In this document: in pieces, positions 2,654-51,077 of the stretch
How positions within the stretch are numbered: position 1 is the stretch's first letter
How the letters are laid out: the number at the start of each line of letters is the position of its first letter
Virus record (IMG/VR): IMGVR_UViG_3300028198_000256
Coordinates: 51,004-115,003 of that record
Source of the DNA: a virus
DNA: 64,000 bases
Reading direction: 5' to 3' (one strand)
The notes under the pieces: model-generated
Seen by the model: the letters and a program-made list of their open reading frames with translations, nothing else
What the model was told of the DNA's origin: nothing
The model's database searches: none
Program-made: the position numbers and the translations under genes

Positions 2654-4777
2654 TCACCTCAAATCTTTATCAAAATCATCTACCATAATTGATTCATGTT
2701 CTAAAATTCCATCTAATTCGCCTTTCAGATTAGACTCATATGCCCTTTCTAAAATATTTAATGCATCCTTTGTATTAGATGATGTAAAAGTTTTATCTGT
2801 CAACCTAGACCTTGCATCAAATCCTAATGCAGATTTAATTGAATTAGGAACATTGACCACCGACTTCACCATTCTACTATTCAACTTATCTGATGGACCC
2901 TTATATCTTCTACCAAATGGAAATATCAAACGTCTTAATATAAACCCAATGAACTTTGAAGGATAATTGTCTAAAATGTCCTCAAACGATTTCTGTATAT
3001 TATATAATCCAGACTCAGCACCCCATGTAACATATAATATATCATTCTTCTTATCCATATCATCAGTATCTTCGTAACGTTTTAATACCGCAGATGTCAT
3101 ATACAACTCTGAAAATGCATCTGCAAATCTACCAGTTATTCTTTGTCGTTTCTTAAGATCAGCACCCAACACCGATATACTTATATCAGATAACAATGCA
3201 AAGTTCTTTGATTCCAATTCAATACGTTTATAATACTTACCAATTTCACATGATGCGTCTTTTGGTTTAGATATAAACATACCACCAGTAATATTATGAT
3301 ATAATGACCCAAATATATTACCAATAGTATATTTAAGATGACCCATTAACGCCTTATTAAATGCAATCGCATCACCACATTCAGCAGAAGTTACTTCATC
3401 TTTTATAAATGGATGACACCGTAAAGATCCTTGAGAAAATACAATTAGAGATCTCGTTAATATATTCGCACCCTCAACAGTATTAGCAATAGGTTGTGTT
3501 ATATAATAATTCAATAATAAATTATTAGGACCATCAGATATACCCTTTCCAGCCAAAATGTCCATACCATCAATAATACATTGTCGCATCCTTTCAGTAC
3601 ATTGATATTTCAACATGGCAGAAATAACAGATGGTTTTTCACCATTTACTATTGCAGTAGTAGTGAGATTACACGCAGCCTCTACAACATAACATTGTCC
3701 AATTATCCTAGACAATGGCTCTTCAATACCTTCCATCTTGGAAATTGGAATTTTAAATTGTTTTCTTATCCTAGAATATGCAGTAGTAACTTTTAATGTA
3801 TGTTTAATACCAGCCATAGATAATGATGGTAATGATATTGCCCTACCAGCCGCAAGACACGCCATTAACATTCGCCAACCCTTTCCTACCCCATCAATTC
3901 CACCTATAACATGATTCAATGGTAAAAATACATCTTTACCATAATTTGGTCCATTCATAAATGCTTGTCTAGCAGGATAATGTCTGCGTCCTATACGAAC
4001 ACCCTTAGTATCAGTTGGAACTAATACTAAACTTATACCCTCAACAGGAGGCGAATGCTCAGATTCTTTCAATAACTCATCAGGATCCACAATATGACAC
4101 GCAACACCAAGTAATGTAGATACTGGTCCTAGTGTGATATATCGTTTTTCCCAATTTAATCTAATACCTAATACCTTTTCACCGTCATATTCCCCATATT
4201 CAACAACACCATAATCTTCCATCGCCGCAGCATCTGAACCAGAATATGGTCCTGTTAATGCAAATGCCGGTATATCTTTACCTGATGATAATGTAGGTAA
4301 CCATTTATCTTTTTGTTCTTGTGTGCCAAACTCATAAAGCAATTCACCAGGACCCAAAGAATTTGGAACCATAGTAGTAATTGCTAATGATATACTTCTT
4401 GATGCTAAAATTGATATGATACACGATTGTGCATATGCTGAAAATTCCAAACCACCATATTCTTTCTTGATATTAAGTGCAAAAAAACCATTATCTTTTA
4501 AATAATCCCACACCTCAACTGGTAAATCTTTATGTATAACATTAACTTCCCAATCAGACACCATTTCACAAACAGTATCAACTTCAGAGTTAATGAAATC
4601 ATGTTCTTCTTGTGTTAATTTAGTTTGTTCTGTATTTAATAATATATCCCAGTTTGGTCTACCACCAAATAACTCAGATTCCCACCATACTGTACCGGCA
4701 TCTAAAGCCTCTCTTTCAGTATTTGATATCTTTGGTAATATCTTTTGGAATAATTTCATACCATATTCATTCATCAT
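2654..4777 (-). CDS. fadE: Acyl-CoA dehydrogenase, FadE type, lacking the N-terminal membrane segment
   Basis: ISNTEREALDAGTVWWE, MVPNSLGPGELL, FALTGPYSGSDA, WEKRYITLGP, TVEGANILTRSL. Confidence 0.93.
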   Translation of the reverse strand: MMNEYGMKLFQKILPKISNTEREALDAGTVWWESELFGGRPNWDILLNTEQTKLTQEEHDFINSEVDTVCEMVSDWEVNVIHKDLPVEVWDYLKDNGFFALNIKKEYGGLEFSAYAQSCIISILASRSISLAITTMVPNSLGPGELLYEFGTQEQKDKWLPTLSSGKDIPAFALTGPYSGSDAAAMEDYGVVEYGEYDGEKVLGIRLNWEKRYITLGPVSTLLGVACHIVDPDELLKESEHSPPVEGISLVLVPTDTKGVRIGRRHYPARQAFMNGPNYGKDVFLPLNHVIGGIDGVGKGWRMLMACLAAGRAISLPSLSMAGIKHTLKVTTAYSRIRKQFKIPISKMEGIEEPLSRIIGQCYVVEAACNLTTTAIVNGEKPSVISAMLKYQCTERMRQCIIDGMDILAGKGISDGPNNLLLNYYITQPIANTVEGANILTRSLIVFSQGSLRCHPFIKDEVTSAECGDAIAFNKALMGHLKYTIGNIFGSLYHNITGGMFISKPKDASCEIGKYYKRIELESKNFALLSDISISVLGADLKKRQRITGRFADAFSELYMTSAVLKRYEDTDDMDKKNDILYVTWGAESGLYNIQKSFEDILDNYPSKFIGFILRRLIFPFGRRYKGPSDKLNSRMVKSVVNVPNSIKSALGFDARSRLTDKTFTSSNTKDALNILERAYESNLKGELDGILEHESIMVDDFDKDLR

Positions 4778-5402: not shown

Positions 5403-7551
5403 TCAACTTGTTAGATTTCTTGTTCTTTTGGAACTTTTTAAAATCACGTTTGATTGTATTCATTCTCTTACGGTCTGTTGTAAACAAAGGGTCATCATCA
5501 GCAACTGTTACAAATTCATCATCTTCTGCCTGTAACCGTTTATCATGAACCACAATGTAACGGTCATAAAACTCATTATCCGAATCAATTTTATCATGAA
5601 CAATATATCCCACTTTTGGATTAACCAATTTACGATATGATGTTAAGAAAAAACCAATTACATTATATCGTTTTCGTAATGCATCAAACATCGCCTTTTG
5701 ATATAATTTAGTTCTTGAATAATATGAATAAATACCACCCACGTTCGCCTCAAGTCTACCATAACCTTCAACATCAAAAACTACAACCTTTTGATCACCA
5801 TAACCCAAACTTTTAGTTCTGATATCTTGTGCCTGACCATCAGTCAGGAAAACCACATTCATCTTTTCAGTATTATGTTTCTTAACAAAATCATCCGCAA
5901 GAATTAATGAGTAAGCAGCAGTTTCAATTAATGGTGTTCCACCCATTGAAAACAGTTTCTCTTTCATCCAAGCATTACCACCTGTCAATGTTTCAGAAGA
6001 AAACATAACTCGTTGAGTCATTTTGTTCTGTTTACTCGTTGTCCAACTAGAATCGGCAATTTTAATCATTCCTAATGCATAATTGGCAAGGTCATATTTA
6101 CCATAATCTTCACCTTTACCAAACATGTTTCTTTTGCCATTATCTTTCCATTTTTTACCATTAGTAGTAAATGTATATAATTCATATGGAATACCAACAC
6201 GTTTCGCAAACATAATCAAAATAACAGACTGTTTTACGGTTTCATATAAACGACCCCACATAGAACTAGAGAAATCAACATACATCAATAATCCATGATT
6301 CTTAGCATCAGGAAATGACATGATTGACTTGAAAATATGATCGTCTAACTTATATTGCCACAATTTATCCACATCAATTGAACCACTTGTAGACTGTCTT
6401 GCCTTTCTTGATTCCATTGCAGATTTACGAAGTTCAAATTGTTGAACCATAGCATTTACTGCGGGTTTAACATCACGAATAAACTCTTTATATCTTACAT
6501 TAATGAACTCATCATGATAAATTTGCATAGCGGGTTGATTATTCTTCATTTCTAAGAATTCAGTATAACTTCTCTCCACCTCTTCATCAGTATATAAAAA
6601 CTCATTAACCAATTGTTCCTTTGTGAATTTAAGATATGAAGTACCACTACCCTCATTAATCATCTTATTTTCATTCTTTCTAAATGCATCATCAGTAACA
6701 GAATGATATGGATCTTCACCAGTAGTATCACCAGTATCAGAAAGTCCACCACCAGAAGAAGAAGAAACATTATCTTCTTCAACACTATTATCATCAGTAA
6801 CATTAGCATCAGCATCAGTATCAGAAGAACCAGATTCTAATGAGTCATCACCATCTTCTGAAGATTCAGTATCACCAACATCAGAATTTAAACTTTCAGA
6901 CAATCCAGAAGAATCTTCAGATTCTTCAGATTCTTCTGAATCACCAGAACCATCACTTGATTGTTGCTGCTGTTGCTGTTGTGGTTGCTGCTGTTCATCA
7001 AGAAACTCCATCAACTCACGTGAAACTCTAACTGTATCATCCCAAGTATCAATTTGAAATACTTTAGACATCATAACAGATTCTTTAAATGAAAACTTAA
7101 TATCAATAGTTTTTGATAACTTAGCCTTCAAATTCAATCTATCAAGAAATCCCAAAGTATCAACATCAACATCTTTAATACCAAAGAAATTATCTGCAAC
7201 TAAATGACGATATCCTTTTAGGAAATCATTAATTAATCCAGGATAAAATTCACGAACAAGACGTTCAATACGAACATCTTCAACAATATTTAAAATAGAA
7301 TGTGGTATATCTTCAATATCAGGTAATAACTTATTTATACTTTCATCATGACTGAAAATACTAGGTGTATATAATGCATGACCAACCTCATGTCCAATGA
7401 ACAGAGTGGCAGCATCTTTATATTCTTCTTTCAATAATGGCAATCTAAGAATACGATTAGTAGGGTCAAATGAAGCAGTTCTAAAATTACCCTCAATAAC
7501 TTCTAAATCTTCTCTTGCCATTAATTTGGAAAGTAGTGAAGTGTTTAACAT
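5371..7551 (-). CDS. Metallopeptidase-like (HExxH) plus VWA domain protein, CobT-like family of T4-like phages
   Basis: GHEVGH and NIVEDVRIE; acidic/polyQ linker; MIDAS elements DFSSSM, GGTPL, FLTDG. Confidence 0.8.
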   Translation of the reverse strand: MLNTSLLSKLMAREDLEVIEGNFRTASFDPTNRILRLPLLKEEYKDAATLFIGHEVGHALYTPSIFSHDESINKLLPDIEDIPHSILNIVEDVRIERLVREFYPGLINDFLKGYRHLVADNFFGIKDVDVDTLGFLDRLNLKAKLSKTIDIKFSFKESVMMSKVFQIDTWDDTVRVSRELMEFLDEQQQPQQQQQQQSSDGSGDSEESEESEDSSGLSESLNSDVGDTESSEDGDDSLESGSSDTDADANVTDDNSVEEDNVSSSSGGGLSDTGDTTGEDPYHSVTDDAFRKNENKMINEGSGTSYLKFTKEQLVNEFLYTDEEVERSYTEFLEMKNNQPAMQIYHDEFINVRYKEFIRDVKPAVNAMVQQFELRKSAMESRKARQSTSGSIDVDKLWQYKLDDHIFKSIMSFPDAKNHGLLMYVDFSSSMWGRLYETVKQSVILIMFAKRVGIPYELYTFTTNGKKWKDNGKRNMFGKGEDYGKYDLANYALGMIKIADSSWTTSKQNKMTQRVMFSSETLTGGNAWMKEKLFSMGGTPLIETAAYSLILADDFVKKHNTEKMNVVFLTDGQAQDIRTKSLGYGDQKVVVFDVEGYGRLEANVGGIYSYYSRTKLYQKAMFDALRKRYNVIGFFLTSYRKLVNPKVGYIVHDKIDSDNEFYDRYIVVHDKRLQAEDDEFVTVADDDPLFTTDRKRMNTIKRDFKKFQKNKKSNKLIAQEFARMVA

Positions 7552-9756: not shown

Positions 9757-9831
9757 TGGAGCGGACGGGTCGGAATCAAACCGCCTCTTTCTGTATGGTA
9801 TACAGATATTCTATCATTAAATTACACCCGC
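9757..9831 (-). tRNA. Non-canonical tRNA-Gly-like gene (anticodon ACC, CCA encoded)
   Basis: GCGGGTG-TA-ATTT AATGATA GAAT-A-TCTGT ATACCAT ACAGA-AAGA-GGCGG TTTGATT CCG(A)CC-CGTCCGC-T-CCA; Gly identity elements G1C72, C2G71, G3C70, U73, C35C36. Confidence 0.8.
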
Positions 9832-15379: not shown

Positions 15380-16333
15380 TCATGATACTAACGCCTTTAA
15401 TGATTCACCATTACGAAATCTTCGTATCGTCTCCGATACCAAGTCCTTTACACTTATTACCTTTATCTTTGATGTCAACTCAGAAGTATGTTCTATGGAA
15501 TCTGTAATATACAAAGTCCCGATATCAGACTGTTCTATTCGTTCAATAGACTTTCCAGAAAAAACACCATGAACTGCAACACAATCAACCCTCACCGATC
15601 CAGACAACTTTAATGCCTCTGCAGCACCAACCAATGTTCCCCCACCATCAATCATATCATCTACTATAACACATTTTTTACCTTCAACATCACCAATAAC
15701 ATTCATAACTTCAGACATACCCGGCTCTGGTCGACGTTTATCAATAATTGCGATTGGTAAATTTAATTCCTTTGCAAAATACCTTGCACGACCAGAACCA
15801 CCCACATCAGCAGCAACCACAACATCCCAATAAGAAGGAACAATTGCGGCAACAATAGAATCCCTCATAGTTTTTAAAGCTGATATATGTTCACAAACAA
15901 CATTGTTATTAAAAAATGCTTGTGTTTGTAAAGAATGTAAATCCATACAGATTACTGAATTTATACCAGAATAACAGAGCATATTAGCAAACACCTTACC
16001 AGATATAGGACTTCTATTAGTACGTCTATCTTGTCTAGCATATGCATAATATGGGAATATAACATTAATAACAGATGGATTTGAACGTCTAACTGCATCA
16101 ATAAGTAACATCAATTCCATTATATCATTGTTTCTATTAGAACCTACCCCAGATTTAAATCCAGCTATAATAAAAACTTCCTCTAACCGAATGTTCTCCT
16201 TAATCTCTACATAAATCTCTGAATCAGGAAAATCTCTAATTTTCACCTTGGTCAATCTCATACCAAGATTCTCAGCAACTTGTTTGGCCAACTTTGTATT
16301 AGACCGTGTTGAAATTATTATAGATTTTTTCAT
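15380..16333 (-). CDS. prs: Ribose-phosphate pyrophosphokinase
   Basis: FPDSEI, PYYAYARQDRR, DLHSLQ, IIDKRR, VIVDDMIDGGGT. Confidence 0.95.
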   Translation of the reverse strand: MKKSIIISTRSNTKLAKQVAENLGMRLTKVKIRDFPDSEIYVEIKENIRLEEVFIIAGFKSGVGSNRNNDIMELMLLIDAVRRSNPSVINVIFPYYAYARQDRRTNRSPISGKVFANMLCYSGINSVICMDLHSLQTQAFFNNNVVCEHISALKTMRDSIVAAIVPSYWDVVVAADVGGSGRARYFAKELNLPIAIIDKRRPEPGMSEVMNVIGDVEGKKCVIVDDMIDGGGTLVGAAEALKLSGSVRVDCVAVHGVFSGKSIERIEQSDIGTLYITDSIEHTSELTSKIKVISVKDLVSETIRRFRNGESLKALVS

Positions 16334-18060
16334 AAATTATCTTTACATAATGTTTCAATTATATTTTTCATTGCAATAGATTGATCATCTGGGGCAATCT
16401 CTATATTTAATACATAAGATTGTGACACATCATCTAATGCAGTTTCTAATGCATTCCTGAATTGAGAAGAATCTGATATATACATCCCAACACCACCATC
16501 CATTAAATCTGTTATTTTATCATATCTCCAATTATGAATATCATTGAACTCACCTTCCATAATTGCCTTTTCAGTAGAATATCCCCTATTATTAAGTATA
16601 AGAATAACAGTATTCAACTCATTACGAATGTGGGATGAAAATTCAGAACCCGTCATTTGAAAGGCACCATCACCAACAATGACTATTGGTCTTTTATGTG
16701 GTTTTGCATACTTAACACCAACTGCGGCAGGAACCGAAAATGACATAGATGTATAATATGCCATACATAAAAATTGTCCTTTCCTCATAGGAACATCAAT
16801 AATACCAAATAACGATTCACCTATATCTGATATTACTATATGATCCTCACTTATCAATTCACCTATAGTATCAAATACATATTCCAATTTAGTAGGATTC
16901 GTCATGTCATGTGACTTAAATGACAATTTACTGGTATCTACAATATTAGTCCATCTACTTATAGAATTATCAGATTGAATCTCAGAATCATCTAAATATA
17001 CCAAAAATGAACGAACCAATTCATAAAAATCCTCAGTTGTGGATTTTAATGTTTTAATATGTTTATTTTGAAACATGATACCATCATCCATATTAATAGA
17101 AATATCAGCAACAAAATCAAATGATTCAATATCCGTATTAACCATACCAATAGTAACAATACAGTCTGATTTTTTTATCTCATCAATAACTGACGAATCA
17201 GAAAATAAACCAGAAACACACCCAATAGAATTTCGACTGAACTCTGAAATGGTGGATTTACCAAGCAAAGTTGTAAATATTGGAATATTAAACTTCTTTG
17301 CAAAATTAAGAATATGATCTTCTAATGAATTACGAAATACCTCATGACCAATAATTAAAACCCTATTACTTGCAGATTTAAATTTATTCAAATTATCATA
17401 TGGTAAATTTATAGATTTGCATTCTTTAGAAAATGGAGTATCCTTAACAATGACATTATTAGAATCCTTCACATATGCTGGAAAGATTTTTGATGGTACA
17501 TCATCCCCATATACTGTTTGAAATTTCTTCAAATATTCATCAACTGAACGTACTATATCTTTATTTGAAAATTCAATATAAATTGGTCTAGAATGTTTTC
17601 GCATTTTATTCAATGCCAAATGAATCATAGACATATTAAAAAACATATCTTCAGAATCTAACGAATAAGTATTAGTGGTTATATTCTTGAATATATCCCT
17701 TTGTGTATTTGCATTATTGATTGTGTGATGTCTATTTGGATTTACCAATAAATCATCAGATGATGGTTTACCAACAAGAATAACAACTGGTGACCTTTCC
17801 GCATAGGCACCAGCAACCGAATTCATAATATTCATAGCACCAACTGAATACGTGACACATACCACACCACAACCACGTAATCTACCATATGCATCTGCGG
17901 CATATCCAGCAGAATCTTCTCTACTCACTCCAACATATTCCATATCAGAATGTTCTTCAATTTCACGCATAAAATTTAACGTGTAATCTCCTGGTATACC
18001 AAATATATGACCTGCACCATATAACTTTAATTGTTCTATTAAAAAATGTCCTAAATTCAT
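16330..18060 (-). CDS. ThDP-dependent 2-oxo-acid decarboxylase (pyruvate/indolepyruvate decarboxylase family)
   Basis: FGIPGDY, AGYAADAYGR, GDGAFQMTG...ILNNRGY ThDP motif. Confidence 0.88.
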   Translation of the reverse strand: MNLGHFLIEQLKLYGAGHIFGIPGDYTLNFMREIEEHSDMEYVGVSREDSAGYAADAYGRLRGCGVVCVTYSVGAMNIMNSVAGAYAERSPVVILVGKPSSDDLLVNPNRHHTINNANTQRDIFKNITTNTYSLDSEDMFFNMSMIHLALNKMRKHSRPIYIEFSNKDIVRSVDEYLKKFQTVYGDDVPSKIFPAYVKDSNNVIVKDTPFSKECKSINLPYDNLNKFKSASNRVLIIGHEVFRNSLEDHILNFAKKFNIPIFTTLLGKSTISEFSRNSIGCVSGLFSDSSVIDEIKKSDCIVTIGMVNTDIESFDFVADISINMDDGIMFQNKHIKTLKSTTEDFYELVRSFLVYLDDSEIQSDNSISRWTNIVDTSKLSFKSHDMTNPTKLEYVFDTIGELISEDHIVISDIGESLFGIIDVPMRKGQFLCMAYYTSMSFSVPAAVGVKYAKPHKRPIVIVGDGAFQMTGSEFSSHIRNELNTVILILNNRGYSTEKAIMEGEFNDIHNWRYDKITDLMDGGVGMYISDSSQFRNALETALDDVSQSYVLNIEIAPDDQSIAMKNIIETLCKDNL

Positions 18061-18103
18061 ACAACCACCTTTATTTAAAAGTATTACATAATATCTAACA
18101 TCT

Positions 18104-18886
18104 CTATAGTTCTTCTGGATTACCCCTTGTCGATTCTAAATGTTCAGCCCACGCACAACAGTCATGATACCCTGATGATGAATGATCATTAAAAGAATCT
18201 ATTTCAAATTGCAATAATCCACCACACATACCCCATATATATTGTCCAATCAAATACATTCTAGAATATCCAGAAACAACCCTACCATTACAATCAAAAT
18301 ATTTTAATAATCCAATATGTCTGAATCCAACAAGTTCTAATGGGTGTCGTGTAACTATATCACAATTATTTTTAAATCTATAAAATGTTGGAGTAAACGA
18401 AGATGCAAAATCAGAATCACCCACTCTAGGCGACCCAAAAGTATATCCTATAGAATCTTTTCCACCAAATCGTGATGAGGCTAAAGTACATAAAGCAGCT
18501 CCCAAACTATGACCTGTAAAATATACATTCCTGTGTTTATCTCCGACTATTGAATAATCTACATAATGTTGAAACAAATCATCATATATCAAGTCTAATG
18601 CACCCTTAAACCCCCTATGAACACTACCAATACTGTCTGATTCAACCTTTCTAAATTTTATATCTGCCTCAATATCTGACAATTGTGTCGGTTCCGTCCC
18701 CCGAAATACATATATAATATCTTCATCATCCCATAATCCATAACATTGAGTAGACCCATTATTAAAAAACTTAATATCATATTTCTCTGAATATATTTCT
18801 GAGAAATCTGCAACATCCAAATAAGCATTCATAGACAATCCAGAAAAAAACGTTGCATTTTTATAACTAAATTCCCTATTTAACAT
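18104..18886 (-). CDS. Lipase, class 3
   Basis: VFRGT, VHRGF, TGHSLGAA, TFGSPRVG, NNCDIV. Confidence 0.9.
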   Translation of the reverse strand: MLNREFSYKNATFFSGLSMNAYLDVADFSEIYSEKYDIKFFNNGSTQCYGLWDDEDIIYVFRGTEPTQLSDIEADIKFRKVESDSIGSVHRGFKGALDLIYDDLFQHYVDYSIVGDKHRNVYFTGHSLGAALCTLASSRFGGKDSIGYTFGSPRVGDSDFASSFTPTFYRFKNNCDIVTRHPLELVGFRHIGLLKYFDCNGRVVSGYSRMYLIGQYIWGMCGGLLQFEIDSFNDHSSSGYHDCCAWAEHLESTRGNPEEL

Positions 18887-18887
18887 A

Positions 18888-19094
18888 TCAATCTCCAGAA
18901 CAATTAACTTTTATTGAATTTGGCGCCACAGCCTCACTTACTTGTTCACGAAGGGCAACTCTGCCCATATCACTAATAGAACAATATTGTTCTACTGTAT
19001 GATATGCCGCCAATTTTACTGTATCCATCTTAGAACAACCATACAACATGATAATAATTGACATTATCAAACTCAACTTAACTAACCTTTTCAT
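18888..19094 (-). CDS. Small lipoprotein
   Basis: Lipobox LYGC; GGAG SD. Confidence 0.7.
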   Translation of the reverse strand: MKRLVKLSLIMSIIIMLYGCSKMDTVKLAAYHTVEQYCSISDMGRVALREQVSEAVAPNSIKVNCSGD

Positions 19095-19095
19095 A

Positions 19096-19224
19096 TTACT
19101 CTCCTATTATAATTTTACCTTCTAATGTTTGTGAAGCCGATATTCTTATTGGGGTCATATTAGAACACCCAATAGACGAAATAATAATTAATAATATCAA
19201 ATTCACTTTAACTAACTTTTTCAT
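19096..19224 (-). CDS. 42-aa lipoprotein-like peptide (not in ORF track)
   Basis: MKKLVKVNLILLIIISSIGCS..., signal similar to the downstream lipoprotein. Confidence 0.5.
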   Translation of the reverse strand: MKKLVKVNLILLIIISSIGCSNMTPIRISASQTLEGKIIIGE

Positions 19225-19254
19225 ATACCACCCCGCACATATATCTTCTGGTTA

Positions 19255-19285
19255 GAATAATTCCGTCAAATTGGCGGAATTATTC
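19255..19285. terminator. Stem-loop, probable terminator or processing hairpin
   Basis: GAATAATTCCGTCA-AAT-TGGCGGAATTATTC inverted repeat. Confidence 0.5.
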
Positions 19286-19297
19286 ATAATAAATATA

Positions 19298-19615
19298 TTA
19301 ATTGAAATTATATCGGTACTCTACCGCTACATTTTCAAGATGTTGATCATTCCCTTCAAATAAATCCCAAGGTCCAGACATTTGTTGTCTATTATACATC
19401 ATGGTAACTTCATGTGATTTTGAACCAACATAAGCAGTAGTGAATAATCGTAGACCATTAGTATCTTGATCACCACTCCAAAAATTATCTAAGTTATCCA
19501 TATCTTGAGTCCAACGAAAACCAGCATCCTTCATTTTCATTGAAAATGAATCTGCAACAGCCACCGTTGTTGTAAATGCAAATAATACAGTTAATAAAAT
19601 TAATACCTTCTTCAT
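19298..19615 (-). CDS. Secreted or outer-membrane protein (likely start MKKVL at 19615)
   Basis: Sec signal peptide ending AVA; GAGG SD; beta-strand-like C-terminus YRYNFN. Confidence 0.65.
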   Translation of the reverse strand: MKKVLILLTVLFAFTTTVAVADSFSMKMKDAGFRWTQDMDNLDNFWSGDQDTNGLRLFTTAYVGSKSHEVTMMYNRQQMSGPWDLFEGNDQHLENVAVEYRYNFN

Positions 19616-19646
19616 ATTTTTTTCCTCTTTGTTGTAAAAATGAAAC

Positions 19647-19678
19647 ATAATGTGGGTATTTTCCAACACCCACATTAT
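19647..19678. terminator. Hairpin downstream of the tmRNA coding piece
   Basis: ATAATGTGGGT...ACCCACATTAT, 11-bp inverted repeat. Confidence 0.5.
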
Positions 19679-19684
19679 ATATAT

Positions 19685-20178
19685 AAGAGGATTTCTGTTG
19701 CCAAGTATCCCCAAACTCCGCATACTTATATACTAAGCTGCAACCGCAAAATTATCATCTGCATTTATTTTTTTGATTTTTACATCTTTCTTGATGAATA
19801 GTCCATATACAATATAGTACATTGTCGAATCTGTTCTCCCCCACAAAAATTGTCTAGTCACAACCCAAAAGTCCTGCAGAACTTCATGAACGCCACTTGC
19901 GGCTAAGGATACCCGGGAGTTTGTTGTCCCGTGTTCACATACGTCCATATATACATTGTAGAACCCATCATCGCTGGTTTGGTGCTAAGTTAAATGAACC
20001 CGTTGGCTCTGGGGGAATTCCCCCTCACCATCTTTCGTACGCTCCATCTATTCTACTAAGTATACCGTGTGTCACACATTCCGTATATATGCATTATACA
20101 TCTACACTAGACAATTTATGTGGAAGAGGTGGGAATCGCACCCACGTCCAACATACATAAAATATACTTCAAACTATT
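19685..20178 (-). ncRNA. ssrA: Circularly permuted (two-piece) tmRNA
   Basis: Acceptor piece GGAC-GTGGG TGCGATT CCCAC-CTCTTCC-A (ends 20121) lies upstream of the 5' strand GGGGGAG-AACAGATTCGAC (starts 19842); G3.U70 pair; helix 2 AATGTAC/GTATGTT; tag (A)ADDNFAVAA* at 19762-19733. Confidence 0.9.
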
Positions 20179-20479
20179 ATGCTTTTAACTTTAAATCTTC
20201 CTCCGTTACAATATCTTCATACCCATCATACTCACGAACATAAAACTTTAACCCCTCTGTAACATATGACAATCTCATATTATCAAACTCATATAAATTA
20301 TGAGTTGGTTCTGACATCTCCATCACCTGTTTATGAAATGATTTCTCATCCCCATGCAAAAATTCATAAATTAATTCAGCATCCATTCTAAGTGATTGGG
20401 GTTTAATGGAAAATCCACTACCCCAACCAGCATGTATAAGAACTCCTACTTTACCATCTGCACTATAATATTTGCCCAT
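20177..20479 (-). CDS. Conserved phage hypothetical protein
   Basis: GKVGVLI.AGWGSGFS and FYVREYDGYE pattern seen in phage proteins. Confidence 0.65.
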   Translation of the reverse strand: MGKYYSADGKVGVLIHAGWGSGFSIKPQSLRMDAELIYEFLHGDEKSFHKQVMEMSEPTHNLYEFDNMRLSYVTEGLKFYVREYDGYEDIVTEEDLKLKA

Positions 20480-22460
20480 CTAAATTCTCCACTAATTGTG
20501 CATCTTGAGAATGATATTGTTTAGTGATTTCTTTATCTGTTTCATCTGAATAATGTAATGGACCACCTCTAAATGGAGCAAATCCAGTACCAAAAATAAT
20601 ACCAGAATCTATAAGATCAGCAGACTCTACAATACCATCATACAAACATAATTTACACTCTCTAATAATTTTTTCAATTAACCTTGTCGTTATCTCTATT
20701 TTAGGATCCGCATAAACCGCATCCACGGGTTTACCTTTGTCATATATGTAAAACCCACTACCAGATTTAATACCCAATTTACCCTTGTCTACTAACTTCT
20801 TTAATCTTTTTGGAACAGTAATTCCAAGATCCTCACTTATTATATCCGTAACAAAATAACAAACATCAAGTCCTACAGTATCTGCCAATAATAATGGACC
20901 CATTGGCATACCAAAATCAGTAAAAGAATTGTCAATTTCTTCTTTACTATATCCCTCATCCAACATATTAATAGCCTCAATAAGTGTAGGCATTAACACA
21001 CGATTAACTAAAAATCCTGGACTCGATTTGACTTTTAATGGTAACTTATCAATATGTCTACAAAATGACATAGACTTCTCTATAACATCCTCTGATGTAA
21101 TATCTGAATATACCACTTCAACCAAAGGCATTTTTGCAACTGGATTAAAGAAGTGTATACCAACTAATCTCTCAGGATTTTTCATTTCACTTGATAATAC
21201 TTCCAACTTGATAGAAGATGTATTAGTGCCCAATATAGCAGTACGTTTCATTTCAGATTCTAATTCACTATATAATTGACGTTTAATATCCGCATTTTCA
21301 ACAATAGCTTCAATGACTATATCTGCGGAAGATATACCATATCCATTTTTATCAGGAATCAACCTATCATACACGTCATTGATTAAATAATCCTTTCCAG
21401 AAAATCTTTTTACATAAAATTTATACGATCTTTTCATTGCGGCAGCTATGGTGTTATCATCAATATCTTGTAAAGTCACCTTATATCCCCTTAGAGCCGC
21501 CCACATTGCAATGTCTCCACCCATTACACCAGCACCTATAACGTGGACATGTTTAAGATCTAACTTAGATTTATCACCAGAAGATTTAAGTAAATCCTGT
21601 AACATAAACACTCGTAATAAATTCTTTGCAGTATCTGTCATTGCTAACTTAGAAACCGACTCCGCCTCTGCATTCATAAAATGATGCTCATCATATCCAT
21701 ATTTTTCCCATATATCAACTAAAGCATATGGAGCAGGATAATGTTGTTTATTTGCCTCTTTCCTTAAATTTCTACGTATCTGCATTGATAATAACTTTCT
21801 ACCAATACCAGAATTCAATACAGAATCTAATTTATCTGGTCGTCTAACGGGAGGACACTTTGCAAGTACATCTTCCGCAGATTTAACTAATAAACGTTCA
21901 GGAACTGCATAATCAACTAATCCCATCTTTTTTGCCTGATATACTGATAAAGTACGTCCACTTAACATCATACCCATAGCCTTAATAACACCAAGAACTC
22001 TAATAGACCTAACAGAACCACCAAATCCAGGATGTATCCCCAACTTAACTTCAGGAAATCCGACTCGGATATTAGGAGAATCTAATATAATTCTATAATC
22101 ACATGATAATGCAAGTTCCAATCCACCACCAAGACACAATCCATTAATTAATGCCAATGTAGGAAATTCCATATCATCAATTAACCACATCACTTCTTGT
22201 CCTTTAGTAATGGCTTCATAAGCATCATCATACTCATGGAAATCCTTAAATTCTGTAACATCAGCACCAGCAATAAACCCAGTTGATTTATCAGAACAAA
22301 TAACCATACCATCAGGATTATCAGATTTAACCTCTAATAATACATCTTTTAATTCCGTTAATACTTCACCAGATAATACATTCATACTACCATAAGAATA
22401 ATCAAAATGTACCCATGCTATATTGTTAGAATATTTTAATTTAAAATGTTTATAATTCAT
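20463..22460 (-). CDS. fadJ: Multifunctional enoyl-CoA hydratase / 3-hydroxyacyl-CoA dehydrogenase (FadJ/FadB)
   Basis: FIAGADV, CLGGGLELAL, PEVKLG, VIGAGVMGG, TNTSS, GIHFFNPV, GMPMGP. Confidence 0.93.
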   Translation of the reverse strand: MNYKHFKLKYSNNIAWVHFDYSYGSMNVLSGEVLTELKDVLLEVKSDNPDGMVICSDKSTGFIAGADVTEFKDFHEYDDAYEAITKGQEVMWLIDDMEFPTLALINGLCLGGGLELALSCDYRIILDSPNIRVGFPEVKLGIHPGFGGSVRSIRVLGVIKAMGMMLSGRTLSVYQAKKMGLVDYAVPERLLVKSAEDVLAKCPPVRRPDKLDSVLNSGIGRKLLSMQIRRNLRKEANKQHYPAPYALVDIWEKYGYDEHHFMNAEAESVSKLAMTDTAKNLLRVFMLQDLLKSSGDKSKLDLKHVHVIGAGVMGGDIAMWAALRGYKVTLQDIDDNTIAAAMKRSYKFYVKRFSGKDYLINDVYDRLIPDKNGYGISSADIVIEAIVENADIKRQLYSELESEMKRTAILGTNTSSIKLEVLSSEMKNPERLVGIHFFNPVAKMPLVEVVYSDITSEDVIEKSMSFCRHIDKLPLKVKSSPGFLVNRVLMPTLIEAINMLDEGYSKEEIDNSFTDFGMPMGPLLLADTVGLDVCYFVTDIISEDLGITVPKRLKKLVDKGKLGIKSGSGFYIYDKGKPVDAVYADPKIEITTRLIEKIIRECKLCLYDGIVESADLIDSGIIFGTGFAPFRGGPLHYSDETDKEITKQYHSQDAQLVENLDGQIL

Positions 22461-22463
22461 AAT

Positions 22464-23768
22464 TTATCTCTTTAAATTTTCAACTAATATTGCACCACCT
22501 TGTCCATGTCCAATACATAAAGATGCAACCCCATAATGTCCACCACTTGATTCTAACGTCTTAATTAAATGATATACTATCCGTGTTCCAGAAGCACCTA
22601 CAGGATGTCCTATACTAATAGAACCACCATGAACATTTAATTTTTCATCAGGTATTAACCCAAATGGTTCATTCAATCCAAACTCAGATAAACAATAATC
22701 TGCATCATTCATTGCCCTTGTACAACCAATAACTTGTGATGCAAAAGCTTCATTTAATTCCCAACTATCAATATCATCACATCGTAACCCATTTCTCATA
22801 ACAAGAGGAACTATTGACTGAACTGGTCCCAATCCCATCTCTGATGGATCTACTCCAGCCCACTTAGTATCAATAATTTTTGCAATAGCTTTATCACGTA
22901 ACCCATACTTATCCAAGGCATCCTCACTTGCCAACAAAACAAATGAAGCACCATCCGTAATAGGTGAAGAATTACCCGCAGTCACATTACCAAATATTTT
23001 ATCAAAAACTGGTCTTAATTTCCCTAATTTTTCAATAGTGTTCTTGGATCTAACAGATTCATCTTTATTGTAAAAATTCCCATCAGTATCATATATAGTA
23101 ACAATCTCATCCTCTAATACATTAGTATTTTGTGAGATAGACGCTTTCATATGACTATCTAATGAATAAGCATCCATATCATTTCTAGATATATTAAACT
23201 TATATGCCAAATTCTCGGCAGTCTGTCCCATTGATAAATTAATAGTTGGATCTTTTAATGCACGTAATAAACTAATCACTGGAACTAATAACTTAGGTCT
23301 AAACTTAAGTAACACAGACAACTTCTTAGAAAATGTCTTAGCTAATGTAAATTCAGACAACCACATAGTCATATCATCATTAAATAATAATGGTGCCCTA
23401 CTCATAGTTTCCGTACCACCAGCAATAATCAAATCAGACTGTCCACAAGATATACTCCTATATGCCGAATCAATTGACTGCAAACCAGAAGCACAATTTC
23501 GTTGTACCGTATATGCCGGTATATTAACATTAAGTCCTAATCGTAATGCTAACAATTTTGCAATATTACACTCATCGGCGTTGGGGTTCATGCAACCAAC
23601 AACCAATTCATCCACATCATCATTACCAATATCATTACGAATCAACATAGGTCTAACCACCTGAATAGCCAAATCCAATGCCTTAAACTTTCCAGGACTT
23701 CCTTTAGCCTTTAAAAAAGGTGTCCTACTACCATCTACAATATATACATCATTTAACTTATATTTCAT
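22464..23768 (-). CDS. fadI: Acetyl-CoA acyltransferase (3-ketoacyl-CoA thiolase, FadI/FadA)
   Basis: RNCASG, TAGNSSPITDGA, NEAFA, GHPVGASG, CIGHGQG. Confidence 0.93.
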   Translation of the reverse strand: MKYKLNDVYIVDGSRTPFLKAKGSPGKFKALDLAIQVVRPMLIRNDIGNDDVDELVVGCMNPNADECNIAKLLALRLGLNVNIPAYTVQRNCASGLQSIDSAYRSISCGQSDLIIAGGTETMSRAPLLFNDDMTMWLSEFTLAKTFSKKLSVLLKFRPKLLVPVISLLRALKDPTINLSMGQTAENLAYKFNISRNDMDAYSLDSHMKASISQNTNVLEDEIVTIYDTDGNFYNKDESVRSKNTIEKLGKLRPVFDKIFGNVTAGNSSPITDGASFVLLASEDALDKYGLRDKAIAKIIDTKWAGVDPSEMGLGPVQSIVPLVMRNGLRCDDIDSWELNEAFASQVIGCTRAMNDADYCLSEFGLNEPFGLIPDEKLNVHGGSISIGHPVGASGTRIVYHLIKTLESSGGHYGVASLCIGHGQGGAILVENLKR

Positions 23769-25189: not shown

Positions 25190-27100
25190 TTATTTAGTTT
25201 CTGTTTTTTCTTCTGGTGTCGGTTCCACAATCTCAGCATCTACAACTTCTGCCTCTTCGGGAACGACACCATCAACGACTTCTGCTTCAGGTTCCGGAAC
25301 TGGCTTTTGTAAAGTTGCAGATAACTCAGCCAACGATTGCACTTTAGTATTAATATCATCTAAATCTTCACCAGACATAGATTCTTTCAATTCAGAAACA
25401 CTATTTACGATCTTCTCACGTTCTTCATCTGGTACTATAATTTCTTCGTCTGCTAATTTCTTCTCAACATCATTAATAAATCCTTCCGCCATATTTCTTG
25501 CACCAACCAACGCAGTATACTTATCATCTGCATCTTTATGTTCTTCACCCTCTTTAATCATACGTTCTACATCTTCATCAGATAACCCCGATGAAGATTT
25601 AATTTCAATTGATTGTTCCTTACCAGTGTTTTTATCCTTGGCAGAAACATGCATAATACCATTAGCATCAATATTAAATTCAACTTCAATTTGTGGTGTT
25701 CCGCGTGGTCCTGGTTGAATTTCTGTTAAATCAAATCTACCTAAAGAATTATTACCAGAAGCAACTGAACGTTCACCTTGAAGAACATGAATAGTTACAG
25801 CTGATTGATTATCCTCTGCCGTCGAAAATACTTCACTTTTTTTCGTTGGAATGGTGGTATTCTTTTCAATTAATGTGGTCATAACACCACCCATCGTTTC
25901 AATACCTAATGACAATGGAGTAACATCAAGCAATAACACATTGTCAATACCACCAGATAACACACCACCCTGTGTAGCAGCACCAAGAGCAACTGACTCA
26001 TCAGGATTTACATCCTTTCTCGGTTCAATTCCAAAAATAGATTTTACCATTTCTTGAACTTTAGGCATTCTAGTTTGCCCACCAACTAAAATAACATCAT
26101 CGACCTTAGTAATGTCTGCATCCTTTAACGCAGTAACACATGGGTTTTTTGTACGTTCAATTAATTCAGATACCATCTTCTCCAATTTAGAACGTGAAAT
26201 CTTAACATTTAAATGTTTAGGACCAGTAGAATCCGCAGTAATATATGGTAAATTTACTTCAGTTTCTTGAGTCGATGACAACTCAATTTTACACTTTTCT
26301 GCCGCTTCTTTTAATCGTTGTAATGCAATAGGATCATTATGAAGATCTACACCATTTTCTTTTTTAAATTCATCACAGAGATAATCAATAAGTCGTAAAT
26401 CGAAATCCTCACCACCTAAAAATGTATCACCATTAGTAGACAATACTTCAAAGGAATATTCCCCATCCACATTCGACATCTCAATAATAGAAACATCAAA
26501 AGTACCACCACCAAGATCATAAACAGCAACTACCTTATCATCTTTAATATCACCCTTATCTAAACCATAAGATAGAGCCGCAGCAGTAGGTTCATTGATA
26601 ATTCGCATAACATCTAGTCCTGCAATCTTACCAGCATCCTTTGTTGCCTGTCTTTGTGAATCATTAAAATAAGCAGGAACAGTAATAACCGCCTGTGTTA
26701 CTTCAGAACCCAAATATGACTCCGCATCTTTTTTTAATTTCATTAAAATTTTTGATGAAATTTCTGGGGGAGATAATAACTCACCACCAGATTTTACCCA
26801 CGCATCACCATTATCCGCCTCTACAATGTCATAAGGCACCATAGATATGTCCTTTTGAACTGCATCATCTTTAAACTTTCTGCCAATTAATCTCTTAACC
26901 GCAAACAATGTATCTTTTGGATTAGTCACCGATTGTCTCTTAGCCGACTGTCCTACTAATATTTCCGAATCCGAATGTGAAACTATAGATGGTGTCGTCC
27001 TAGAACCTTCACCATTTTCAATTACTACTGCCTTACCATTCTCTAATACAGCTACACATGAATTAGTAGTACCCAAATCAATACCAATAATATTACCCAT
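25190..27100 (-). CDS. dnaK: Chaperone DnaK (Hsp70)
   Basis: [37 protein letters not shown]. Confidence 0.97.
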
Positions 27101-44330: not shown

Positions 44331-45608
44331 TTAAAACTGTTCCTCTTCAGTAGAACCATCCATAGCAGTAACCGATGAGTTACCACCTTGTATAACATTT
44401 GTAACAGAATCAAAATAACCAGCACCAACTTCCTCTTGATGCCTTGCAAATGTATATCCATCTTTAACCGAATTAAACTCAGGTTCTTGGACACCCTCCA
44501 CATAAGCAGTCATACCACGTTCAACATAATCTTTTGACAACTCAAACATAGAATGCCACATATCATGAATACCAGCCAGCGTAATAAATTGCCACTTGAA
44601 CCCCATCTCTCCCAATTTTTGTTGATAGTGTGCTATTTCTTCGTCGCTCAAATTCTTCTTCCAATTAAAAGACGGTGAGCAGTTATAAGCCAGCAACTTG
44701 CCAGGATACTGTTGGTGTATCGCAGTCGCAAATTTTTGAGCCTCTTCTAAATTCGGCACCGCAGTTTCACACCAAAGCATATCAGCATAAGCCGCATAAG
44801 ATAATCCCCTTGATATCGCTTGGTCTATTCCGCAGTTGACTCTAAAAAAACCCTCTTCAGTTCTCTCCCCTGTGACGAATTCCTTGTCACGAACATCAAT
44901 ATCAGATGTCAGCAAAGTTGCTGCGTTAGCATCTGTCCTTGCGATAATAACGATAGGCACACCCATAACATCAGATGCCAATCTCGCGGATACTAGTTTC
45001 TGGATTGCCTCTTGGGTTGGCACTAACACCTTACCACCCATGTGTCCACATTTCTTAGCAGATGACAGTTGATCTTCTAAATGAATACCAGACACACCAC
45101 ACTCTATCATAGATTTAGTCAACTCATAAGAGTTCAACACCCCCCCAAACCCAGCCTCAGCATCTGCGATAATTGGAGCAAAGTAATCAATATCATTTCT
45201 TCCCTTATTCCATTGGATTTCATCTGCTCTACGGAATGTATTATTAATACGTCTTACCATCATTGGTACTGAATTATATGCATATAATGATTGATCTGGA
45301 TACATAGTTTCTGACGAATTACCATCAGCAGCAACTTGCCAACCTGATAAATATATAACCTTAATACCAGCCTTAACTTGTTGCATTGCCTGTCCAGCAG
45401 TTATAGCACCCATAGAATTAACATATCCATCTTCGTTAATCAATTTCCAAAGTTTTTTAGAACCCACGGTAGACACTGTATATTCTTCATCAAACGAACC
45501 ACTTAACCTAATAACATCTTCTGCCGAATAATCACGTTTGACATTCAACCAACGCTCATTCTCTCTCCAATCTTTCTCTAAAGTTCGAACTCTACCCAAT
45601 TGTTCCAT
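44331..45608 (-). CDS. aceA: Isocitrate lyase
   Basis: [58 protein letters not shown]. Confidence 0.97.
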
Positions 45609-50680: not shown

Positions 50681-51077
50681 CAGTTAATAACAAAATCTCA
50701 TCAATCTGTTTTTTTATTATCACTTCACGATTTGGCCAATAAATATAATCTTTATCATCATTCTTCATTAAATTATATAATAATGGCATAATCATACGCT
50801 CAACTTTCAACAATTTATCCTCGACAACTTCTTTACTTATATCAATACTACTGGATTTATCTTCGTAAAGTTGTTTTGTAGATAATAACTCACGCAATAC
50901 ATCATTTTGTTTCTCCAAAAAAACATCCATCTTCTCTAATACATGTTTTACTTCCACATTAGTAGTATCTATCTTTTTTGAAACCTCGTCATTTGTTGAT
51001 TTTATACTAACTAATTCTTCTTCGTCTACTGCCGTAAATCCAAAATCTATCTCGTCGTATTTATATTCATTAACCAT
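50658..51077 (-). CDS. Conserved T4-like phage protein
   Basis: DFGFTAVDE, PLL.NL, YIYWPNR. Confidence 0.7.
   Translation of the reverse strand: MVNEYKYDEIDFGFTAVDEEELVSIKSTNDEVSKKIDTTNVEVKHVLEKMDVFLEKQNDVLRELLSTKQLYEDKSSSIDISKEVVEDKLLKVERMIMPLLYNLMKNDDKDYIYWPNREVIIKKQIDEILLLTGGDRDNG

Follow-up and report, generated by a model that had tools for sequence, protein, structure and literature searches.

The spacers of two-piece tmRNA genes are otherwise treated as throw-away, and an exceptionally long one in a phage genome raises the question of whether such a segment can have a job of its own. This spacer lies on the minus strand of a 64,000-nucleotide stretch of viral DNA (hereafter the window), corresponding to positions 51,004 to 115,003 of the IMG/VR virus record IMGVR_UViG_3300028198_000256. 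A sequence-only reading had described it as a highly structured RNA nested in the tmRNA intervening segment and had proposed an independent non-coding RNA, a ribozyme or a mobile RNA as explanations. Six distinct variants of the spacer, all from one narrow phage lineage, could be compared; beyond the window's record, they derive from six IMG/VR contigs and two metagenome contigs. From the comparison of these sequences, the spacer probably does have a job of its own.

A permuted tmRNA gene in a marine phage genome

The gene hosting the spacer is an alpha-type two-piece (permuted) tmRNA gene. The Rfam model for permuted tmRNA, RF04321, aligns completely (model positions 1-213, all 213) at window 20178-19733, minus strand, with 89.9 bits for a cut-off of 47; the model loop which joins the 3' and 5' acceptor strands contains an insertion of about 280 nt. 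The alphaproteobacterial model RF01849 also aligns to the locus, its score of 47.5 bits being slightly below the cut-off of 50. The permuted order is T-arm GUGGG-UGCGAUU-CCCAC, CUCUUCC, A, spacer and GGGGGAG, and a 7-bp acceptor stem with a G3-U70 pair, along with the discriminator A73, can be read from the sequence. The acceptor piece (20121-20178, minus strand), delineated by the RF04321 alignment and by parsing of the T-arm and acceptor stem, comprises a P2 strand, the T-arm, the 3' acceptor strand CUCUUCC (20128-20122) and the discriminator A (20121), and is the same in all variants. The coding piece (19733-19842, minus strand), established by Rfam alignments and translation, contains the 5' acceptor strand GGGGGAG with G1 at 19842, P2 and a tag frame (19762-19733) which starts with GCA and encodes ADDNFAVAA before its stop. 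The tmRNA 3' tail with its GGCAACAGAA motif, recognized in the RF01849 alignment, and the terminator together occupy 19645-19732 on the same strand, a terminator scan having placed an intrinsic terminator hairpin followed by a T run at 19680-19645. From the positions of the acceptor strand, the discriminator and G1, it follows that the 278-nt intervening sequence coincides precisely with 19843-20120 (minus strand), and both these landmarks and the RF04321 alignment confirm its earlier identification as a tmRNA intervening segment.

The standard tmRNA finder ARAGORN misses this two-piece gene altogether, calling neither a tRNA nor a tmRNA at the locus. CCA is not encoded at the 3' acceptor end, the discriminator A being followed by CAU in all six variants, and CCA would hence be completed enzymatically. 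An encoded CCA is common but not obligatory in tmRNAs, which have been described as "not always encoding CCA" (PMC11915505). Neither a CCA-adding enzyme nor an SmpB gene was found in the record, which is estimated to be 64% complete.

The source is a 115-kb virus contig from IMG/VR. The window carries T4-type replication genes (gp43-like polymerase, gp41-like helicase, gp46-like protein and ribonucleotide reductase), all its genes are on one strand with cellular-type metabolic genes among them, and its polymerase shares no more than 47% identity with its counterparts in marine cyanomyophages. Judging from this gene content, the carrier of the tmRNA is an uncultured marine T4-like phage. The metabolic genes, located as a group at window 2654-4777, 20463-23768, 44331-45608, 25190-27100 and 16330-18886, include a near-complete fatty-acid beta-oxidation set (acyl-CoA dehydrogenase, FadB-like hydratase/dehydrogenase and thiolase) as well as isocitrate lyase, Hsp70, a thiamine-pyrophosphate enzyme and lipases; among cellular proteins, even the nearest relatives of FadB share just 36% identity with it. 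Elsewhere in the window, a weak match to a tRNA model (9761-9831, minus strand; 29.9 bits for a cut-off of 29), which ARAGORN did not call, may be a divergent or decayed phage tRNA.

In relatives with an 80% identical FadB, the entire tmRNA module is absent. Alignment of window 18079-20541 with L014:7917-9946, from such a relative, revealed that the module is swapped for gp55-like and gp47-like genes, the swapped portion consisting of a 100-residue ORF, the tmRNA with its spacer, a secreted 141-residue protein, small lipoproteins and a lipase. Window 18079-20541 is thus a variable accessory region. The 100-residue ORF, which adjoins the tmRNA, has cluster members on more than 100 contigs and a relative of 74% identity (P0002), and an IMG/VR scan with an alignment of this protein retrieved known contigs only.

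Spacer length and content among tmRNA genes

The unusual length of the spacer is borne out by comparison with both phage and cellular genes. Among 118 phage tmRNA loci, retrieved by the 5' motif of the tmRNA coding piece, spacers form a continuum of 5-282 nt in which the spacer described here, with 278 nt, is the longest, the next longest after this lineage measuring 239-250 nt. The full RF04321 span reaches 446 nt here versus 181-343 nt in 146 alphaproteobacterial genomes sampled evenly across the class, and the spacers of the five longest-span genomes are of 77-137 nt, which sets the maximum in this sample at about 137 nt. This sample includes G042, with a span of 223 nt, and the outcome is unchanged without it. 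The view that such spacers are normally short and discarded therefore holds for the sampled alphaproteobacteria but not for phages, in which long spacers are common, the range is 5-282 nt and small genes or a tRNA are often housed.

The content of long phage spacers is informative in this respect. Those parsed were L026:1573-1719 (phage Melnitz), L037, L041, L124, L030, L036, L119, L092 and L052. In other lineages, most spacers of at least 120 nt contain a small ORF that begins with ATG behind a ribosome-binding site; this ORF covers more than 57% of the spacer in all these cases and 72-90% in all but one. Between relatives, indels in these ORF-bearing spacers are in frame (+12 and +24 nt) and substitutions are conservative, and the ORFs therefore look like real small genes. 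The small ORFs of the 120-250-nt spacers are 29-73 codons long, and several overrun the RNase P site, stopping 13 or 42 nt into the mature coding piece; in the Melnitz record, no CDS is annotated in the spacer. A further phage locus carries a tRNA-Val (GAC) inside the spacer of its permuted tmRNA (L039:6101-6170, tmRNA at 5950-6406; ARAGORN). In the literature searched, cargo in tmRNA spacers appears only as single anecdotes, e.g., a tRNA-Ala in one spacer and a repetitive element in another, both from other genomes (PMC11915505).

The spacer of the present lineage departs from this pattern. Its best ORF behind a ribosome-binding site covers 15% of its length, versus the 72-90% noted for other long spacers. 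The earlier statement that it has no convincing ORF is upheld by the variants, which share no conserved frame and differ by single-nucleotide indels. A stop-free sense frame of 74-85 codons does run from the 3' half of the spacer into the coding piece in all six variants (window 19733-19981, minus strand). In five of the six, this frame is continuous with that of the tag and shares its stop codon; in the most distant variant (L019), the loss of one nucleotide cuts it short immediately ahead of the resume codon. In addition, a 1-nt insertion in three of the six variants rewrites its first 12-20 residues. This long frame through spacer and tag is probably incidental, though odd. A mini-ORF is also found in the variable centre of the spacer, MVRGNSPRANGFI in the window and MVRVNSLKTNGHHLT in L019, with a GGAG 10 nt upstream in the window. 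Collectively, the behavior of these frames across variants shows the 278-nt spacer to be non-coding.

A closing stem equivalent to the one described below was found in other phage pre-tmRNAs, and the stem is thus not special to this RNA. The 278-nt spacer is best read as an RNA cargo in a stem-closed slot which related phages fill with small protein genes or a tRNA. It adds an RNA example to the emerging picture of the phage tmRNA spacer as an expression slot for accessory cargo.

Two strictly conserved parts flank a drifting centre

Divergence was assessed against L019. In the neighboring fadB gene, the window and L019 differ at 21% of four-fold sites and at 9.4% of all sites. The spacer itself is divided into parts with contrasting histories (all minus strand). 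The 5' part (20046-20105) is conserved, with no difference from L019 in the 75 nt measured. The central domain (19971-20045), which includes the GGGGG-AAUU-CCCCC hairpin, shows 22 differences in 77 columns, a near-neutral rate. The 3' domain (19859-19970) is conserved again, a single 1-nt insertion being the sole change in the 128 nt measured (19843-19970, i.e., the 3' domain along with the 3' strand of the closing helix). Together, the two conserved parts have one change in 203 nt (binomial P 5e-8), in line with the 0-2 changes found in the tmRNA pieces. These 203 nt are thus held about forty times more strictly than neutral sites, on par with the tmRNA. Compared with another variant, L013, the 5' part has eight differences, clustered within a single hairpin or loop, so that a small region around 20083-20095 is variable.

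The best reading of this pattern is purifying selection on the two outer parts of the cargo, apparently as strong as that on the tmRNA. It is preferred to a recent sweep of the whole module because such a sweep would not leave a near-neutral centre between identical flanks. Selection of this kind, with one change in 203 nt against 21% at neutral sites, would fit a functional second RNA.

Fold of the spacer

The sequence-only reading proposed that the spacer is closed by a 12-bp helix extending the acceptor stem, and both inspection of the sequence and folding of the whole precursor agree with it. The 5' strand of this helix, AAAUUGUCUAGU (20106-20117, minus strand), pairs through positions 20117-20106 with the 3' strand, ACUAGACAAUUU (19847-19858, minus strand). 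In the whole-precursor fold, the helix and three further pairs (ACA/UGU) join the acceptor stem to form about 22 nearly continuous pairs. The eight helices named earlier are all present and nested, except that GCCGC/GUGGC forms only 4 bp (GCCG/UGGC), its innermost pair leaving a 2-nt loop. Besides the closing helix, they are CAUAUAUAC/GUAUAUAUG and GUAGAAU/GUUCUAC inside the spacer, the hairpin GGGGG-AAUU-CCCCC (20024-20011) and, within 19859-19970, GUGAAC/GUUCAU, CGGGA/UCCCG, GCCG/UGGC and AAGUUC/GGACUU, all on the minus strand.

The spacer is also richer in G+C than its surroundings, as had been noted (43.5% versus 31.8% for the window). That it is highly structured was only partly sustained: comparative evidence speaks for it, but its folding energy is ordinary, with a z-score of -1.64 for the spacer alone, 10 of 200 shuffled sequences folding equally well. 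For the whole precursor, z is -3.0 and the cargo folds separately atop the acceptor stem, and this prediction shows the cargo as a module of its own, closed by the stem.

The 54 pairs of the helices proposed earlier were scored on the six variants. Standard pairs occupy 322 of 324 pair cells (99.4%), a value that 5 of 500 shuffles match among these close variants, in which 48 of the 54 pairs are invariant. In the GGGGG hairpin, two pairs are changed on both sides, from GC to UG and from GC to AU. Three further pairs are changed, all to wobble, and their equivalents on the opposite strand are A-C mismatches; among these changes, a C-to-U change which two variants carry in the 5' strand of the closing helix leaves a G-U pair, and does so solely on the tmRNA strand. 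The constraint thus acts on RNA of the tmRNA sense, since the wobble changes would be mismatches on the other strand. The helices of the 3' domain, all invariant, are for this reason beyond the reach of covariation, and the central domain adopts differing folds in different variants. The proposed fold is hence plausible, its support from variation being confined to the closing stem and one hairpin.

Within the spacer, a hairpin at 20009-19996 resembles a terminator but was rejected as one, since L019 does not keep it. Regarding contacts with the mature tmRNA, the predicted duplex between cargo and coding piece is no better than with shuffled sequences (z +0.65) and that with the acceptor piece is weak (z -2.25).

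Searches for relatives and further copies

The statement that the spacer could not be assigned to a known family stands after an Rfam 15 scan: the 278 nt alone matched no family at E<=10 and, in a 651-nt scan at gathering cut-offs and at E<=10, only tmRNA models were found, with none inside the spacer. ARAGORN found no tRNA inside it. By blastn, the locus had no match in 50,697 phage records, and the spacer matched only itself in its own 115-kb record, where it is single-copy. It had no match in 401 alphaproteobacterial genomes in a BLAST search run without a positive control. An nhmmer profile of the six variants, run on the remainder of the window and on 118 other phage tmRNA loci, found nothing below E 2. 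When IMG/VR was scanned with three exact patterns and a metagenome collection with one, the same lineage alone was recovered, and exact 18-mers of the spacer occur in this lineage's contigs only.

Two of the explanations first offered lose ground with these results. A mobile RNA is at odds with a single copy in the 115-kb record and with an occurrence only inside this tmRNA, and a ribozyme with the lack of any match to an Rfam model and of any motif seen. Two specific candidates were rejected. A miniature inverted-repeat or other repetitive mobile element was set aside on the grounds of copy number, of the confinement of the 18-mers to the lineage and of near matches to the 12-bp terminal repeat, which show no excess (13 observed versus 14.2 expected). 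A group I intron was discarded since the T-loop is uninterrupted, the insert lies between the acceptor strands and Intron_gpI does not match.

A proposed second RNA from the tmRNA precursor and its alternatives

Based on these data, a 278-nt non-coding RNA module fills the tmRNA spacer, and we propose that, once excised, it would persist as a separate folded RNA acting in trans; we hold the chances of this reading, in which release, stability and separate function are inferred, to be about even. In the module, a long stem prolongs the acceptor stem, and a drifting centre which keeps a hairpin is flanked by about 75 and 128 nt of strictly conserved sequence. The whole gene would be transcribed as one precursor ending at the terminator (19645-19680). 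Host tRNA-processing enzymes would then cut it, RNase P acting 5' of G1 (19842) and a 3' nuclease trimming to the discriminator A (20121) before enzymatic addition of CCA. The excised spacer, its ends locked in the 12-bp helix, might finally persist with a trans role of its own, e.g., protein or RNA binding. As a counterpoint, no homologue was found beyond one tmRNA lineage, and a general trans-acting RNA might be expected elsewhere.

The main rival is a cis role in tmRNA maturation or timing, which we regard as a serious possibility although one clearly short of even chances. The conserved parts would guide or gate maturation and the module would be degraded after cutting. These parts could align the two halves with each other, bring in or hold back RNase P, RNase III or 3' trimming, or respond to a ligand or a protein, thereby confining active tmRNA to a particular phase of infection. 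The strict conservation of the outer parts, equal to that of the tmRNA pieces, would fit this role as well. The module is physically continuous with the acceptor stem through the ~22-bp helix, 3' maturation needs extra steps as CCA is not encoded, and the glutamine riboswitch directly after the Melnitz tmRNA is a precedent for RNA control near phage ssrA (PMC9004378). However, other two-piece tmRNAs, from phages and cells, mature with unrelated spacers of 5-100 nt, so that a large module is unnecessary for processing; moreover, unrelated cargo sits in the same slot in other lineages, and no riboswitch or ribozyme model matches.

We give less weight to ribozyme, peptide and selfish-element readings. 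An insertion that is selfish or a relic and has no function, be it captured host DNA, what is left of an intron or a miniature inverted-repeat element, could owe its uniformity to recent recombination among co-infecting phages; this reading would agree with the perfect 12-bp terminal inverted repeats, the confinement to one lineage, the variable accessory region, occupied by gp55- and gp47-like genes in the relatives with 80% identical FadB, and the repetitive element known from the spacer of another genome (PMC11915505). It is nonetheless improbable: the record holds one copy and no excess of near matches to the repeat, the module is absent from the 118 other phage tmRNA loci and the 401 alphaproteobacterial genomes, the near-neutral centre between identical flanks contradicts a recent sweep of the whole module, and changes in the terminal repeats are of the wobble type, as fits an RNA helix. 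A self-cleaving RNA which frees the tmRNA halves without host enzymes appears very unlikely, even though a conserved core with a variable peripheral domain is typical of ribozymes and the location is one where two cuts are needed. No ribozyme or intron family of Rfam 15 matches even at E 10, a hammerhead-type core motif was not seen on reading the sequence, the tRNA-like ends are ordinary substrates for RNase P and 3' trimming, and splicing by a group I intron at this place would fuse the acceptor strands, with loss of the aminoacyl end. Finally, translation of the 13-15-codon frame in the variable centre or of the long sense frame into the tag could be invoked, given that small ORFs are the usual cargo of the phage spacer slot, that the long frame is stop-free over 74-85 codons in every variant and in the tag frame in five, and that the mini-ORF persists behind its GGAG in the window. 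Such a peptide is hardly credible, as the 1-nt insertion in three variants rewrites the start of the long frame and neither start of that frame has a ribosome-binding site; the 128-nt 3' part lacks substitutions, even synonymous ones, against a neutral expectation of ~21%, which points to a constraint on every base, and each "synonymous" change in the mini-ORF is one side of a compensatory pair in the hairpin.

Its strict conservation makes this spacer a strong candidate for a new phage non-coding RNA, with a reach limited so far to one narrow, uncultured phage lineage. In a bolder and more tentative version, which we consider less likely than not, the spacer would represent a new class of phage trans-acting structured RNA, riding the tmRNA promoter and cut out by host tRNA-processing enzymes. 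Its conserved core might bind a host or phage factor, for instance to lure away a nuclease or defence protein or to scaffold a small RNP, with a centre that drifts or tunes specificity, and the cut-out part of phage two-piece tmRNAs would be a general slot for accessory RNAs and mini-proteins.

Comparison with known systems

Two-piece tmRNA genes have already been published in marine myophages, namely Melnitz and pelagimyophages (PMC9004378), and the tmRNA itself is thus not new. The closest comparison is with the ssrA gene of Melnitz EXVC044M (Methylophilales phage, MZ577097; Buchholz et al., 2022; PMC9004378), likewise a marine T4-like myophage, which shares the permuted gene order, the alpha-type tRNA-like domain, a tag ending in ...AA and a spacer closed by a stem continuing the acceptor stem. 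In contrast, the Melnitz spacer is 146 nt long, unrelated in sequence and equipped with a small ORF that begins with ATG behind a ribosome-binding site, whereas the spacer here is 278 nt and non-coding. Melnitz also encodes CCA, unlike the tmRNA described here, and has, as published, a glutamine riboswitch directly after the tmRNA (RF01739; L026:1899-1947, 52.8 bits), whereas no riboswitch was found after the present tmRNA. The Melnitz paper does not discuss spacers, the word "intervening" occurring zero times in it (PMC9004378).

The spacers containing a tRNA-Ala or a repetitive element, reported in the 2025 tmRNA database paper (PMC11915505), resemble the present one in that a second element resides in the removed part of the pre-tmRNA. 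Their cargo belongs to known classes, whereas the cargo here is without a family, is not tRNA-like and is not repeated. Group I introns in tmRNA genes, which are self-splicing and located in the T-loop (PMC11915505), similarly place an extra structured RNA of a few hundred nucleotides inside the gene and absent from the mature RNA. Here, however, it is the junction of the acceptor strands that carries the insert, the T-loop being intact, and group I models do not match.

With respect to its working, the proposed RNA would resemble by-products of tRNA processing that have functions of their own. In E. coli, the 3' external transcribed spacer of glyW-cysT-leuZ acts as an sRNA sponge, the stable RNAs C and D of phage T4 derive from a tRNA cluster transcript, and MALAT1/mascRNA is a functional by-product of tRNA-type processing. 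In these systems, RNase P and 3' nucleases cut a tRNA-like precursor and yield a second RNA. The likeness is one of working only: none of them is related to the cargo in sequence or structure, membership cannot be claimed, and cargo release and function are here only inferred. If the RNA were released and stable, it would provide a bacterial-virus parallel to these by-products and a simple natural design for making a stem-protected RNA from a tRNA-like precursor.
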